The position numbers were made by a program, and so were the translations under genes. A model generated the notes under the pieces. It had not been told where the DNA came from. It did not search any database and worked only from the letters and a program-made list of their open reading frames with translations. This document shows, piece by piece, positions 3,173-13,406 of a stretch of 64,000 nt of DNA. The DNA is from Escherichia coli. GTDB taxonomy: Bacteria > Pseudomonadota > Gammaproteobacteria > Enterobacterales > Enterobacteriaceae. Numbering within the stretch: position 1 is the stretch's first letter; each line of letters starts with the position of its first letter. Where the stretch lies: the NCBI RefSeq assembly GCF_048403405.1, contig NZ_CP183129.1. The stretch is one strand, 5' to 3'.

Positions 3173-3745
3173 ATGAAGCGTAATATTATAGGCGGTGCAT
3201 TCACTCTGGCATCTCTAATGCTGGCCGGGAATGCACTGGCAGAAGATGGTGTTGTTCACTTCGTCGGTGAAATTGTCGACACTACTTGTGAAGTTACCTC
3301 CGATACAGCCGATCAAATTGTCCCACTGGGTAAAGTCAGTAAAAATGCTTTTTCAGGTGTAGGTAGTCTGGCGTCACCACAGCAGTTCAGTATTAAGCTT
3401 GAAAAGTGCCCGGCAACCTACACTCAGGCAGCCGTTCGTTTTGATGGTACAGAAGCGCCTGGCGGCGACGGCGACCTGAAAGTGGGTACGCCGCTTACAG
3501 CGGGCAACCCTGGCGATTTTACCGGTACAGGACAAGCGATTGCGGCAACGGGTGTCGGTATTCGTATTTTTAACCAGTCAGATAACTCGCAGGTTAAACT
3601 TTATAACGATTCTGCCTATACCGCTATCGACGCTGAAGGCAAGGCTGAAATGAAGTTTATTGCACGCTATGTGGCAACCAATGCAACTGTAACGGCGGGT
3701 ACGGCGAACGCCGATTCACAATTTACTGTCGAATATAAGAAATAA
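3173..3745 (+). CDS. lpfA: Fimbrial major subunit (long polar fimbria LpfA-like)
   Basis: 190 aa with a cleavable signal peptide (…LAGNALA) and fimbrial subunit architecture; first gene of a chaperone-usher cluster at the glmS-pstS position where lpf2 is known to sit. Confidence 0.75.
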   Translation: MKRNIIGGAFTLASLMLAGNALAEDGVVHFVGEIVDTTCEVTSDTADQIVPLGKVSKNAFSGVGSLASPQQFSIKLEKCPATYTQAAVRFDGTEAPGGDGDLKVGTPLTAGNPGDFTGTGQAIAATGVGIRIFNQSDNSQVKLYNDSAYTAIDAEGKAEMKFIARYVATNATVTAGTANADSQFTVEYKK

Positions 3746-3792
3746 TTTATCAAGGGCCTTTTTATTCAGTTGGCTTTGGCCAGGGAGTCGTT

Positions 3793-4524
3793 ATGTCCAG
3801 AAAAAGTTGTTTAATCAGGCTCTTTAAAACAACCGTTTCATGTAAGTTATTTACCGCGATTATACTCAGTGTTTTTTTAGTCCAACCAGCATTAACCTAT
3901 GCAGGCGTTGTCATTGGTGGTACACGGGTAGTTTACTTAAGTAATAACCCAGATAAATCTATTTCTGTATTTAGCAAGGAAGAAAAAATTCCTTATCTCA
4001 TCCAGGCATGGGTAGATCCGTTTAATAAAGAGGATAAAAGCAAAGCACCGTTTACCGTTATTCCTCCGGTATCACGATTAGAACCCGCGCAAGAAAAAGT
4101 ATTACGCATTATTCATACCAAAGGTGTGTCATTGCCTGATGATCGCGAGTCAGTCTTCTGGCTGAATATTAAAAATATTCCGCCCTCTGCGAGCAACAAA
4201 GCGGCGAACTCACTGGAAATCGCAGTTAAAACGCGTATCAAGCTGTTCTGGCGACCGGCAAGCATTCGCCTGATTCCCGAAGATGCTGCACCGAAGGTGA
4301 AGTGGCACCGGGAAGGGCGAAACCTGATTGTAGAGAATCCCAACCCGATTCATATCAGTGTGATGGATGTCATCGTTGATGGTCATGATGTGCCCCTCAA
4401 CATGATCCGTCCTTTTGAAACGCTCACGTTACCTTTACCTGCTAATTCTGCGGGAGGCCAAATGATCTGGCGATTTATTAATGATTACGGCGCAGTCAGT
4501 GACCCGATAAAAATGACGCTGTAA
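3793..4524 (+). CDS. lpfB: Periplasmic fimbrial chaperone (PapD-like)
   Basis: 243 aa with signal peptide; position and size fit a PapD-family chaperone; second gene of the cluster. Confidence 0.75.
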   Translation: MSRKSCLIRLFKTTVSCKLFTAIILSVFLVQPALTYAGVVIGGTRVVYLSNNPDKSISVFSKEEKIPYLIQAWVDPFNKEDKSKAPFTVIPPVSRLEPAQEKVLRIIHTKGVSLPDDRESVFWLNIKNIPPSASNKAANSLEIAVKTRIKLFWRPASIRLIPEDAAPKVKWHREGRNLIVENPNPIHISVMDVIVDGHDVPLNMIRPFETLTLPLPANSAGGQMIWRFINDYGAVSDPIKMTL

Positions 4525-4548
4525 GCAAGGGAAAAGGATAGGCGTATT

Positions 4549-7044
4549 ATGATGACGACCAGAATAAAGGTTGGCCTCACGGCAGGGACGTGTCTGATTT
4601 TCTCGCAAAGCCTGATGGCCGAGGTCAGTGTATTCAATCCGGCGCTTCTGGAAATCGACCATCAATCCGGAGTCGATATTCGCCAGTTTAATCGGGCAAA
4701 CCTGATGCCCCCAGGTTTTTATAGCGTTGATATTTTTATCAACGGTAAAATGTTTGAACGTCAGGATGTGACCTTTGTTCAGGATAATCCCGATGCTGAT
4801 TTACACGCCTGCTTTGTCGCTATTAAAAAAACGCTAACCACCTTTGGCGTAAAAGTTGATGCGCTGAAATCGCTCAATGATGTAGATGAAACAGTCTGTA
4901 TTGATCCTGGGCCACGCATTGAAGGCTCATCATGGCAGTTCGACAGCGATAAACTGCAACTGAATATCTCCATTCCCCAAATCTATATGGATGCGATGGC
5001 TTATGATTACATCAGCCCCTCGCGTTGGGATGAGGGGATTAACGCGCTCACCATCAACTACGATTTTTCTGGTTCACATACTCTACGTTCGGATTATGGT
5101 TCACAAGAGACAGATACCAGTTATCTCAATCTGCGCAATGGACTGAATATTGGGCCGTGGCGATTACGCAATTACAGCACCTTAAATACGACCGATGGCA
5201 GTGCAGAATACAACTCTATAAGCACCTGGATACAACGTGATATAGCTGCGTTAAGAAACCAGATTATGATAGGTGATACGTGGACGGCGAGCGATATCTT
5301 CGACAGTACGCAAATTCGTGGCGCACGCTTGTATACCGATAAAGATATGTTGCCTGCCAGCCAAAACGGATTTGCCCCCGTAGTGCGTGGGATTGCAAAG
5401 TCTAACGCCACTGTCATTATTCGCCAGAATGGCTACGTGATTTATCAGTCAGCCGTTCCACAAGGTGCTTTTGAAATTACCGATCTCAACACCGCCAGTA
5501 CAGGTGGTGATCTGGACGTAACCATCAAAGAAGAAGACGGTAGCGAACAACGATTTACTCAACCTTATGCGTCGTTAGCCATCCTCAAACGTGAAGGTCA
5601 AACTGATGTTGATGTCAGTGTGGGAGAATTACGCGATGAAGATGGCTTTACCCCTGACGTTATTCAGGCTCAGATCCTTCATGGTTTTCCCTACGGTTTC
5701 ACCTTATATGGAGGTATGCAGGCTGCTGAAAAGTATGGTTCTGCCGCTTTGGGTGTCGGTAAAGATCTTGGCGCATTGGGCGCAATTTCTTTCGATGTGA
5801 CACATGCTCGCGCGAAATTTAGCCATGATGATACGGAAACCGGTCAGTCTTATCGCTTCCTGTACTCGAAACGCTTTGACGATACGGATACCAGCTTGCG
5901 CCTGGTTGGCTATCGTTACTCCACCGAAGGTTATTATACCCTCAATGAATGGGCGTCCCGGCGTAATAATCCTGAAGATTTCTGGGAAACCGGTAACCGC
6001 CGCAGCCGTGTGGAAGGAACGTTAACGCAATCACTGGGCAGAGATTATGGCAACTTATATCTGACATTAAGTCGCCAGCAGTACTGGCATACCGATGATG
6101 TTGAACGATTAATGCAATTTGGCTACAGCAGTAGCTGGAAGCGTCTCTCGTGGAACGTCTCCTGGAGTTATTCCAATACTGCCCGGCAGGGGACGGGGAA
6201 CAACAATGCCAGTGATAACACCAGTGAGCAGATCTACATGCTCTCTTTATCTGTTCCTTTATCGGGCTGGTGGGGGAATAGTTACGCCACCTATTCTGTA
6301 TCGCAAAACGATAATTCCGGTAGCTCACATCAACTTGGACTCAGCGGTACGGCGCTGGAAAGAAATAACCTTTCCTGGAATTTAATGCAGTCCTATAACA
6401 GCCATGATGATGAGGTTGGCGGTAATATGTCCCTGACCTATGATGGCACTTATGGCACGGTGAACGGCAGCTATAACTACAGCCAAAATTCTCAGAGGCT
6501 GAATTATGGTATCAGAGGGGGAATTCTGGCTCACAGCGAAGGCGTAACGTTAAGCCAGGAGTTGGGTGAAACCATAGCTCTTGTTAAAGCACCAGGGGCT
6601 GCCGGGTTAGAAATAGACAATATGCGTGGTGCTGCGACGGACTGGCGTGGTTATACGGTCAAGACACAGCTAAACCCTTATGATGAAAACCGGGTAGCAA
6701 TCAGCGATAACTATTTCTCGAAGTCGAATATAGAACTTGATAATACCGTCGTTACGATGGTTCCCACCCGTGGCGCGGTGGTTAAAGCAGAATTTGTTAC
6801 CCACGTGGGCTATCGCGTACTCTTCAAAGTGGTGAATGCAAAAGGTAAGCCAGCACCTTTTGGCGCTATTGCTGCCGTACAAAATACAAGCTCTGCTGAT
6901 TCAGGGATTGTCGGTGACCTGGGGGAGCTTTATCTCTCCGGCCTTCCTGAAAAGGGGCAAGTGATGCTCTCCTGGGGGAAAATGCCGCCACTACATGTAC
7001 CTTCGATTATTCACTTTCAATACCAGAAAGTGAAAGCGGCTTAA
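4549..7044 (+). CDS. lpfC: Outer-membrane fimbrial usher
   Basis: 831 aa, signal peptide, aromatic-rich beta-barrel composition, typical usher size; uninterrupted here. Confidence 0.85.
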   Translation: MMTTRIKVGLTAGTCLIFSQSLMAEVSVFNPALLEIDHQSGVDIRQFNRANLMPPGFYSVDIFINGKMFERQDVTFVQDNPDADLHACFVAIKKTLTTFGVKVDALKSLNDVDETVCIDPGPRIEGSSWQFDSDKLQLNISIPQIYMDAMAYDYISPSRWDEGINALTINYDFSGSHTLRSDYGSQETDTSYLNLRNGLNIGPWRLRNYSTLNTTDGSAEYNSISTWIQRDIAALRNQIMIGDTWTASDIFDSTQIRGARLYTDKDMLPASQNGFAPVVRGIAKSNATVIIRQNGYVIYQSAVPQGAFEITDLNTASTGGDLDVTIKEEDGSEQRFTQPYASLAILKREGQTDVDVSVGELRDEDGFTPDVIQAQILHGFPYGFTLYGGMQAAEKYGSAALGVGKDLGALGAISFDVTHARAKFSHDDTETGQSYRFLYSKRFDDTDTSLRLVGYRYSTEGYYTLNEWASRRNNPEDFWETGNRRSRVEGTLTQSLGRDYGNLYLTLSRQQYWHTDDVERLMQFGYSSSWKRLSWNVSWSYSNTARQGTGNNNASDNTSEQIYMLSLSVPLSGWWGNSYATYSVSQNDNSGSSHQLGLSGTALERNNLSWNLMQSYNSHDDEVGGNMSLTYDGTYGTVNGSYNYSQNSQRLNYGIRGGILAHSEGVTLSQELGETIALVKAPGAAGLEIDNMRGAATDWRGYTVKTQLNPYDENRVAISDNYFSKSNIELDNTVVTMVPTRGAVVKAEFVTHVGYRVLFKVVNAKGKPAPFGAIAAVQNTSSADSGIVGDLGELYLSGLPEKGQVMLSWGKMPPLHVPSIIHFQYQKVKAA

Positions 7045-7080
7045 TTGAACAAGGTGTGACATGTCATTAAAAGGATTTTT

Positions 7081-8151
7081 ATGAATAAGTATATTATACA
7101 GTGGTGCTTGACTGTTTTTATCTTCTCCTTTAGTGGTGCAACATTTGCGGCCCCAAAAGGTATCTGCACCTCAGATAATGGGGCCTTTCATAGCACACTT
7201 GATTTTTCCGGCTATCTGATTACGGCAGACGAGAACAGAGAGGGAGAGACCTTTAATAAAACCGTGACAAATGGGGACTCTTATCCTGCTCACTGCCATT
7301 GTGATACAGGGAAAGTGGGGGAGTTTCCTTATATTTACTATACAGCGAGAATAAACGAGGCCTTAAGTTATGCGGGTGTTCGTTCTAATGTAAACTACTT
7401 TAATTTGAATCCTAATCTGGATGTTGGAATATCGATAGACCTTCTCGGTGTAGGATACATTAATGCACCTTTTGAATACCATGCTAACAGGCCTACTGGA
7501 GGTTCATATAAATGTAGTCGCACGGACCCATTAAGTATTTCCAGTGGTGCAAAAGCAATAATTTATTTTTATATTAAGAAGACTTTTGCTGGAAAGTTAA
7601 TTGTCCCTGAAACTCTCGTGGCAAAATTGTACGGAACTATAAGCCGTGACACTCCGGTTGATTACTCACAACCTATGGCCGATGTTTATATTCGTGGCGA
7701 TATCACTGCACCGCAAAGCTGTGAAATTAACAGTTTAAGACCCATTAATTTTGATTTTAAAGAAATTCCTGCAGCAGATTTTTCTTCGGTAGCTGGAAGT
7801 ACCGTGACAACGCATAAAATTACCAAAACTGTCACCATTGAGTGTGAAAATTTAGGAATACTAAATACTGATGATATCAGTACCTCTTTTTATGCTACCG
7901 AACCCAGTACTGACAACTCAATGGTCGTGACATCAAACCCGAACGTTGGGATAAAAATTTATGATAAAAATAATAAGGAAATCAACGTTAACGGTGGTGA
8001 ACTACCGACAGATATGGGTAAATCAAACGTCTTTGGTGAAAAAGCCGGTAGCGTCACTTTTTCTGCTGCTCCTGCAAGCCTCACGGGGGCTCGCCCCGCG
8101 CCAGGAACATTTACCGCGACTGCAACGATAACAATTGAGATTGTACGCTAA
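7081..8151 (+). CDS. lpfD: Fimbrial minor subunit / tip adhesin
   Basis: 356 aa with signal peptide; last gene of the cluster; AT-rich codon usage like the rest of the island. Confidence 0.65.
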   Translation: MNKYIIQWCLTVFIFSFSGATFAAPKGICTSDNGAFHSTLDFSGYLITADENREGETFNKTVTNGDSYPAHCHCDTGKVGEFPYIYYTARINEALSYAGVRSNVNYFNLNPNLDVGISIDLLGVGYINAPFEYHANRPTGGSYKCSRTDPLSISSGAKAIIYFYIKKTFAGKLIVPETLVAKLYGTISRDTPVDYSQPMADVYIRGDITAPQSCEINSLRPINFDFKEIPAADFSSVAGSTVTTHKITKTVTIECENLGILNTDDISTSFYATEPSTDNSMVVTSNPNVGIKIYDKNNKEINVNGGELPTDMGKSNVFGEKAGSVTFSAAPASLTGARPAPGTFTATATITIEIVR

Positions 8152-8292
8152 ACGAACTGACAGCGGTGTTCCTCACACCGTTGTCATCTTACGCATTTTT
8201 GTCCGCGAGTTTTCACTCTGCATGACAAAAAGATGACATTACTTTTCTTTTTCTTAGTCAATAAAATCAAAAAGTTAATTAATAATTCTGAT

Positions 8293-12254: not shown

Positions 12255-12980
12255 ATGGACAGTCTCAATCTTAATAAACATATTTCCGGCCAGTTCAACG
12301 CCGAACTGGAAAGCATCCGCACGCAGGTGATGACCATGGGCGGCATGGTGGAGCAGCAGCTTTCTGATGCAATCACCGCGATGCATAACCAGGACAGCGA
12401 TCTGGCGAAGCGCGTCATCGAAGGCGACAAGAACGTCAACATGATGGAAGTGGCGATCGATGAAGCCTGCGTGCGCATTATCGCCAAACGTCAGCCGACG
12501 GCGAGCGACCTGCGTCTGGTTATGGTGATCAGTAAAACCATTGCCGAGCTGGAGCGTATTGGCGACGTGGCGGACAAAATCTGCCGTACTGCGCTGGAGA
12601 AATTCTCCCAGCAGCATCAGCCGTTGCTGGTAAGTCTGGAGTCGCTGGGCCGTCATACCATCCAGATGCTGCACGACGTGCTGGACGCGTTCGCGCGGAT
12701 GGACATTGACGAAGCGGTACGTATTTATCGTGAAGATAAAAAAGTCGATCAGGAGTACGAAGGTATTGTTCGTCAACTGATGACCTACATGATGGAAGAT
12801 TCGCGCACCATTCCGAGCGTACTTACCGCGCTATTCTGTGCGCGTTCAATCGAACGTATCGGCGACCGCTGCCAGAATATTTGTGAGTTTATCTTCTACT
12901 ACGTGAAGGGGCAGGATTTCCGTCATGTAGGCGGTGATGAGCTGGATAAACTGCTGGCCGGAAAAGACCCGAAAGAGTAA
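12255..12980 (+). CDS. phoU: Phosphate-specific transport system accessory protein
   Basis: Translation begins [19 protein letters not shown]; the track ORF starts upstream at 12237, the ATG at 12255 follows an AGGAG ribosome-binding site. Confidence 0.95.
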
Positions 12981-13023
12981 CGCTAACTGTAGGTCAGATA
13001 AGGCTTTTACGCCGAATCTGGCA

Positions 13024-13056
13024 ATCAGCCCGGTCATACATAGTTACCGGGCTGAT
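13024..13056 (+). other. Perfect 11-bp inverted repeat (hairpin) at the phoU 3' end / island junction
   Basis: ATCAGCCCGGT-(11 nt)-ACCGGGCTGAT; no strong downstream T-run, so terminator function is uncertain. Confidence 0.5.
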
Positions 13057-13406
13057 ACACTTTCTCCCTGAAATATTGCCACACAAACTCACCTCGAAAC
13101 TCTCCCCAGTGCAATGCAAATATATTATTTCATTTGAATTATTTTACTTTTAATGTAGTGCCCCGTTATAAAATTTTTTTTGTTATTCCTTTCATTTATA
13201 TCGTTACCCGCACAGAAAATGGAAAAGAAAACAAAAAACCAGGGTAAAAGCCCTATATCGGAACATAAAAAATGAGCGATTTTTTACAGTATTCATAGGT
13301 GGTTTAGTCATAATCGTATCAAAACAACACCAAAGTGTTCTTTTTTATACAAAACGGTTATGTATTGTGAGCGGGCGAATAAAAATTGTGTTCAGGAGAA
13401 ATGATT

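Follow-up and report, generated by a model that had tools for sequence, protein, structure and literature searches.

A probable REP-derived hairpin behind phoU at the left boundary of the Z5211-Z5214 island of Escherichia coli

Rho-dependent 3′ ends were described by Dar and Sorek in 2018 as a stable stem-loop that is not followed by U, with an enrichment of C over G downstream, and their explanation was that the stem-loop blocks trimming by PNPase and RNase II after Rho has terminated transcription further downstream (PMC6061677). The same authors pointed out that a terminator can switch class merely through a changed uridine content past its stem, and they discussed intermediate, mixed cases (PMC6061677). 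A precedent among the repetitive extragenic palindromes (REPs) is REP325, reported to terminate transcription in a partly Rho-dependent manner and also to stabilise the mRNA that precedes it; taken globally, REPs show no association with longer half-lives of mRNA (bioRxiv 10.64898/2026.03.23.713779). For the region beside phoU, Sankar et al. described the Z-locus (Z5211-Z5214) as an alternative to the bgl island, which is silenced by H-NS, and noted that the islands are without apparent mobilisation functions and do not adjoin a tRNA gene (PMC2646131).

The window, i.e., the whole 64,000-nucleotide stretch of E. coli contig NZ_CP183129.1 that was analysed, carries pstSCAB-phoU, then ~7.4 kb of ~30% GC DNA and then the convergent gene yieH. 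Based on the ORF list, the annotation of an identical strain and an alignment to K-12, phoU, the last gene of its operon, occupies 12255-12980 on the plus strand, and yieH, the convergent backbone gene at the island's right end, lies at 20413-21078 on the minus strand. The AT-rich DNA between them is the Z-locus (Z5211-Z5214, with EspY-type effectors): in a strain that shows no difference from the window over the 501 nt searched, it encodes two large annotated type III effectors, one of them EspY4, and between the two, on the opposite strand, is a gene whose product is labelled hypothetical in this strain and, in related ones, a pentapeptide-repeat protein. The first island gene is an 839-aa ORF at 13386-15905 (+), labelled "type III effector protein" in the identical strain with its start 21 nt further in. 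Another accessory insertion, an lpf-O113-type long polar fimbria operon (lpfA-D), flanks the pst operon between glmS and pstS (window ~3174-8153, per the identical strain's annotation).

The element of interest is an intergenic, GC-rich palindrome of 33 nt at 13024-13056 (+), whose arms, ATCAGCCCGGT (13024-13034) and ACCGGGCTGAT (13046-13056), are 100% complementary and enclose the loop catacatagtt, with a predicted RNA fold of -19.4 kcal/mol. A sequence-only reading of this DNA had seen a perfect 11-bp hairpin with an 11-nt loop, 44 nt after the phoU stop and at the boundary of backbone and island, and had doubted, for want of a clear T-run, that it is a simple terminator, all of which was borne out; the phoU ORF ends at 12980, and homology to island-free relatives stops at the 3′ end of the right arm. 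It had also put the switch to AT-rich DNA right at the hairpin, and here it needs amending, since a C-rich tract of 60 nt and 47% GC (13057-13116) intervenes and AT-rich sequence begins at ~13117. Both this tract and a degenerate REP hairpin directly upstream of the element (12989-13023) had escaped it.

The bases directly 3′ of the stem are ACAC, with U residues at +5 to +7 and +9, and the tail ACACTTTCTCCCTGA (ACACUUUCUCCCU) has a T-tail score of 0.34 vs. 2.6-3.6 in related canonical terminators. Thus, the stem of an intrinsic terminator is present and the adjoining U-rich tract of 7-8 nt is absent, and a consensus terminator scan did not call the hairpin as an intrinsic terminator on either strand; the minus-strand flank, TGCCAGATTCGG, is also without a T-run. 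Partial intrinsic termination is nevertheless possible, because the tail holds UUUCU at +5 to +9. Taken alone, the hairpin is only mildly unexpected, as Markov simulations gave, per 64 kb, 0.36 perfect inverted repeats that had stems of 11 bp or longer and loops of 3-20 nt (25% of the simulations held at least one), vs. three observed in the window. A statistical case from the hairpin by itself was dropped as too weak on this account, and its significance rests on its position and its conservation across species. Besides this hairpin, the window has perfect ones with stems of 11 bp or more at only two places, 22598-22632 and 26336-26365, and the first of these (AAAAACCCGCC…GGCGGGTTTTT) resembles a bidirectional intrinsic terminator.

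The upstream neighbour is a degenerate Y-type REP (GTAGGTCAGATAAGGCTTTTACGCCGAATCTGGCA, 12989-13023, +), with a stem of 12993-12999/13016-13022 plus an inner GGC/GCC and a predicted fold of -14.8 kcal/mol. At the orthologous position, E. albertii and E. whittamii have the canonical GTAGGCCGGATAAGGCGTT(T)ACGCCGCATCCGGCA. The REP stem starts 12 nt past the phoU stop codon; Liang, Rudd and Deutscher reportedly found in 2015 that REPs less than ~15 nt from a stop codon can stall terminating ribosomes and reduce expression of the upstream gene, and the proximity of the REP to the phoU stop (12981-12999) could matter for PhoU dosage.

This REP, with its GTAG head at the left, and the hairpin stand inverted and 1 nt apart, a layout of the kind found in bacterial interspersed mosaic elements (BIMEs), although the second unit here has ceased to be a proper REP. 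As in REP325/naRNA4, a GC-rich palindrome at an operon 3′ end lies inverted next to a Y-type REP across a 1-nt linker, and the core GCCCGGT-N11-ACCGGGC (13028-13052, +) has a 7-bp stem identical to that of a REP class interspersed in Enterobacteriaceae, with an interior that is likewise 11 nt. The GCCCGGT stem class is low-copy in E. coli and interspersed in other genera; its core motif was found in 19 of 80 PhoU loci, at several positions within loci and not just after phoU, which argues that it is an interspersed REP class. Stem and interior length match the REPs of two loci (L023 and L061) at the same place. Citrobacter amalonaticus has there REP1, ATT and a full REP, GCCCGGT-ggcgcaagctt-ACCGGGCCTAC, with CCTAC, and so shares with the window its two-hairpin architecture, 7-bp stem and 11-nt interior, with a linker of 3 nt. 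The window hairpin is unlike these REPs in that its interior is unrelated to ggcgctgcgctt and in that the CTAC head has been replaced by TGAT, lengthening the stem to 11 bp, such that the right arm runs on into TGATAC rather than CCTAC. The conserved GTAG/CTAC head beside the REP stem serves in recognition by RAYT. The outer 4 bp (ATCA/TGAT) were found only in island-carrying E. coli. Nor is the hairpin present in many copies per genome, as a REP would be, and its being a multi-copy repeat of E. coli or of the window was ruled out, since the E. coli genomes that have it, and likewise the window, hold a single copy. In Rfam, naRNA4 (RF02564, the REP325-derived two-hairpin unit) aligns over REP and hairpin with 33.4 bits, below its gathering score of 59.5 and mostly owed to the REP, and all remaining matches to other families had E-values above 0.4. 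Read from its sequence, the hairpin is probably the decayed second member of an inverted, BIME-like REP pair directly after phoU, and its descent from the REP family is very probable.

That the hairpin is older than the island is indicated by its homologues. E. whittamii has the order phoU, REP, a 15-nt insert and AATCAGCCCGGTG-aaatacgt-CACCGGGTTTCTTTATTTA, the last running into the yieH stop; the left arm of this hairpin is identical to that of the window, its predicted fold is -17.1 kcal/mol and its T-tail score is 3.64. The same terminator is present, and the island likewise absent, in two genomes whose records are titled E. coli, SCPM-O-B-8794 and E69, the layout of which matches the island-free type IV of Sankar et al. 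(PMC2646131); as the collection has one genome per species, they are presumed to be divergent lineages. The U-tract in all three marks their hairpins as intrinsic terminators. They sit, like the window hairpin, after the phoU REP, with a (nearly) identical left arm (AATCAGCCCGGT) and the right-arm core ACCGG(G), but their stems are of 9-10 bp and are followed by TTTCTTTATTTA, running straight into the yieH stop, whereas in the window an 11-bp stem without a U-tract is followed by the 7.4-kb island. E. albertii, also without the island, has a degenerate hairpin sharing TACCGGGCT, then cbrC. The predicted folds of the relatives' hairpins range from -14.7 to -17.3 kcal/mol. When 13 homologues were aligned, 89 of the 91 cells of the seven inner pairs were paired, with one clear compensatory pair, a C-G to A-U change in E69, and a modest covariation signal (13 of 500 shuffles reached the observed score). 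On the evidence of these comparisons, the hairpin predates the island.

K-12 has after phoU an unrelated, AT-rich canonical terminator, AAATCCCAATAA-cttaa-TTATTGGGATTT, and then GTTATATATA. This terminator, upstream of the bgl promoter, resembles the window hairpin in being a stem-loop a few dozen nucleotides past the stop and ahead of H-NS-silenced AT-rich DNA, and differs from it in its AT-rich, unrelated sequence, its T-rich tail and its lack of a REP. Homology between K-12 and the window stops 13 nt before the phoU stop, with none onward, i.e., the boundary of the bgl and Z haplotypes lies inside phoU (window 12968-12980 vs. 6854-6870 of the K-12 locus, L001). The polarity of this difference was addressed by comparing PhoU loci from 80 species-representative genomes of Enterobacteriaceae. 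The PhoU C-terminus of the window is …GKDPKE, an ending common to nearly all 80 representatives, and the last four codons, which give …DPKE, are in the state ancestral for Enterobacteriaceae; the …GKDSDK of K-12 is the exception, and …DSDK recurs in composite strains that carry both islands. REP-type palindromes also follow phoU in the relatives within Escherichia and in many other genera, often with the convergent yieH 3′ end directly after them. These outgroup PhoU ends and REPs identify the phoU 3′ end and REP of the window as ancestral backbone and the bgl haplotype as the overwritten one and, as the boundary lies inside phoU and the last four codons differ, the bgl-side replacement rewrote the PhoU C-terminus. 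The sequence-only reading had held that an identical hairpin downstream of phoU in K-12 would make the element ordinary backbone. No such hairpin is there, and to that extent its comparison stands, but the absence has no force as an argument against backbone, because the outgroup homologues show that it does not make the hairpin island-borne. The same reading's suggestion of a relic of the insertion junction fails on the homologues in island-free genomes and on the lack of a matching repeat at the island's other end. Of the options it had listed, a role in RNA stability is probably the most plausible.

The island's own limits can be drawn from the same relatives. In island-free Escherichia, yieH directly adjoins the hairpin or terminator; in the window, the stop of yieH is kept at 20413 together with the ancestral flanking sequence (TTATCGCG…), and the ancestral TTTCTTTAT U-tract is gone (on the yieH side, ancestral TTATCGCGTAATATCCCAGCCGCG in relatives vs. 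TTATCGCGTTATCTTCCAGCCGCG in the window). Together with the end of homology at the right arm, this retained flank without its U-tract places the island at ~13057-20412 and implies that it replaced the terminator's U-tract. The right junction (20270-20440) contains no copy of either arm, allowing up to two mismatches, and no direct or inverted repeat of at least 8 nt, and no tRNA or tmRNA was found at the junction; an att site, a terminal repeat and a target duplication were therefore rejected, and the hairpin is the last backbone element rather than an insertion scar. A remnant of the cbrC (yieJ) 3′ end to the right of the hairpin was also considered and rejected, as its local alignments with E. 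albertii and K-12 sequence could not be told from those of shuffles (p = 0.20 and 0.96). Between the espY4 end and the yieH stop, at 20337-20397, is an imperfect inverted repeat (~21/24 bp, 14-nt loop; CGCTTACTCATCAGACACCTGGT … ACCAGCGTGACTGATGTGTAAGCG) with no plus-strand T-run after it, a repeat that may now serve yieH or espY4 as terminator in place of the lost one. Toward the left boundary, the first effector gene has in its AT-rich leader a 22-nt inverted repeat of 77% complementarity (13176-13238), a terminator-like site on the minus strand (13240-13255, TAGGGCTTTTACCCTG then GTTTTTTGTT) and, also on the minus strand, a promoter-like site pointing toward phoU (13153-13124).

Among 5426 complete E. 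coli genomes, 1102 have the 33-nt hairpin, in one copy each; 1003 copies are identical to that of the window (including those of O157:H7 Sakai and EDL933), one mismatch was seen in 85, two in 11 and more than two in 3. The full phoU-adjacent arrangement is present in 1075 genomes. In ten sampled phoU-adjacent copies the arms were intact without exception, and the sole hairpin variant was a loop change, T13044C; EDL933 (O157:H7) is one of these samples, and its surrounding 501 nt are only 91% identical to those of the window. A minority of genomes hold both islands, in the order K-12-type phoU end and terminator, bglGFBH-yieLK, a hairpin remnant, the Z island and yieH. Such tandem islands, sampled here from E. 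coli 19KM1831, 33E, JNE25-001 and PapM-32-1, mean that bgl and Z are not the strict alternatives of the 2009 typing scheme. The bgl+Z layout alone has a 126-nt spacer, found in 16 genomes, where it separates the hairpin remnant from a fragment of the cbrC 3′ end. In the four sampled copies that lie ~10 kb from phoU, behind bgl-yieK, the arms were broken in every case (1, 2, 2 and 3 mismatches; -12.7 to -7.4 kcal/mol). In strain 33E (locus L005, 2985-3045), the junction of the cbrC 3′ end and the Z haplotype falls inside the left arm, at a shared TCAGC, and the remaining stem has one compensatory C-G to T-A change and three mismatches. Unbroken arms are therefore associated with a neighbouring phoU, but the degenerate ones of the composite strains need not have decayed and could represent the older form. 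Within E. coli, a block of ~80 nt that includes the hairpin hardly varies, such that the conservation of the phoU-adjacent arms may reflect shared recent ancestry and not selection.

The tract at 13057-13116 (+), the first bases of island-haplotype sequence, is C-rich and G-poor (C22 G6 A18 T14), a candidate rut site, and the top C-minus-G 60-mer of the window's plus strand peaks at 13055 (99.94th percentile). It is predicted to be unstructured (MFE -5.7 kcal/mol over 84 nt, z -0.9) and is kept in all island-carrying strains aligned. With the untranslated leader that comes next (13117-13385, +), which belongs to the first island gene and is AT-rich at about 31-36% GC, it is part of a gap of ~400 untranslated nucleotides after phoU, with no ORF until 13386. 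The locus thus has what a Rho-type protective stem-loop has in sequence, i.e., a stable stem-loop without U and, downstream of it, unstructured, C-rich, G-poor and untranslated RNA. The likeness to the 3′ ends of Dar and Sorek, whose protective stem-loops also lack U and also have C over G just downstream in an untranslated region, is one of sequence signature only (PMC6061677).

Based on this published signature and on the behaviour of REP325, we propose that the 3′ end of the pst-phoU transcript is determined and shielded by REP and hairpin together. In the island-free ancestor, a U-tailed intrinsic terminator would have separated the convergent phoU and yieH, and the Z5211-Z5214 island would have joined immediately 3′ of the right arm, displacing the U-tract. 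RNA polymerase leaving phoU would now mostly read through the hairpin, and Rho would load on the untranslated C-rich RNA of 13057-13116 and terminate transcription in the AT-rich DNA beyond, so that transcripts coming from pst-phoU would not extend into the effector gene. On AT-rich foreign DNA, Rho acts together with H-NS. The 3′-5′ exonucleases would then trim the transcript back to REP and hairpin, setting its steady-state 3′ end and protecting the phoU mRNA. The comparisons above establish what the element looks like, its homologues, its ancestry and its distribution; the Rho dependence, the exonuclease blocking and the insulation of the island are steps that we infer, and we hold it reasonably probable that the hairpin is a 3′-end protective stem-loop with Rho-dependent termination just downstream. 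In either aspect, it is a single-copy addition to known kinds, the REP-derived 3′ hairpin and the Rho-type protective stem-loop, and no new kind of element.

Other accounts of the hairpin have to be weighed against this one. It might be a functionless relic, a decayed REP or former terminator that persists because it is young and linked, with termination and stability left to the adjacent REP or to nothing in particular. Such an account would be at ease with the near-invariance of the whole 80-nt block, in which no conservation signal is specific to the hairpin, and with the weak covariation, an 11-bp inverted repeat that is not very rare by chance and composite strains that tolerate broken arms. 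It is harder to reconcile with hairpin potential that has been kept across Escherichia species despite sequence change, including a compensatory pair and G-U substitutions, with a window stem that is longer and more stable than those of the relatives, and with arm mismatches that appear, among the sampled copies, only in those no longer beside phoU; we judge it rather unlikely. Somewhat less likely still is a weak intrinsic terminator, in which the hairpin and the displaced UUUCU would stop a fraction of the transcripts unaided. Descent from a canonical intrinsic terminator, the strong stem (-19.4 kcal/mol), the U residues at +5 to +7 and +9 and the mixed cases that Dar and Sorek discuss (PMC6061677) all speak for it, and they are countered by the gap between the window's T-tail score and those of the relatives, by the ACAC beside the stem and by the silence of the terminator scan.

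The two remaining accounts place the function, or the origin, of the hairpin in DNA. The perfect dyad symmetry, inverted next to a REP as in BIMEs, might suggest a protein site, i.e., a regulator palindrome or a BIME-type target of DNA gyrase, IHF or a REP-associated transposase; BIMEs bind gyrase and IHF. Outside the 7-bp core, though, the relatives conserve pairing and not sequence, a regulator site would not typically have arms of 11 bp around an 11-nt spacer and the REP-typical CTAC head is missing, so that a site of this kind is very improbable here. We think it just as doubtful that the hairpin is a relic of integration, be it an att site, a terminal inverted repeat or a structure made at the junction by insertion. 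The island does begin right where the stem ends on its 3′ side, composite strains keep the hairpin remnant attached to the left end of the island, the 33E junction falls within the left arm at the TCAGC microhomology, and REPs are documented as insertion targets (PMC1525189). Against these points are the right junction, with neither an arm copy nor a repeat of at least 8 nt, the absence of a nearby tRNA and the observation of Sankar et al. that the islands are without apparent mobilisation functions and not beside a tRNA gene (PMC2646131), and the occurrence of the hairpin in island-free genomes largely excludes such an origin.

Returning to the protective stem-loop with Rho-dependent termination, its evolutionary extension can be put forward only tentatively: the locus might be a natural, still-polymorphic terminator switch, from an intrinsic phoU/yieH terminator to a Rho-dependent one with a protective hairpin, brought about when the island replaced the U-tract and supplied a rut site, the stem being perfected from ~9 to 11 bp and decaying only where it is uncoupled from phoU. 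Were this so, strains already sequenced would supply the states before and after the switch as well as the uncoupled state. For O157:H7 Sakai, a strain whose hairpin is identical to that of the window, there are Term-seq data (PRJNA601151/GSE143631) and RNA-seq data with and without bicyclomycin (GSE197379). The finding is of use mainly for annotating the locus and keeping track of its evolution: the Z5211-Z5214/EspY island has its left boundary at 13056/13057, and it is the island haplotype that retains the ancestral phoU 3′ end, which the K-12 (bgl) haplotype rewrote, including four PhoU codons. It also provides a testable model of how strongly Pho-induced pst-phoU transcription may be kept out of the effector gene. 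If the Rho model is true, the locus would offer matched natural variants, U-tailed, U-less and with a broken stem, for studying how a terminator changes its mechanism beside newly arrived foreign DNA.
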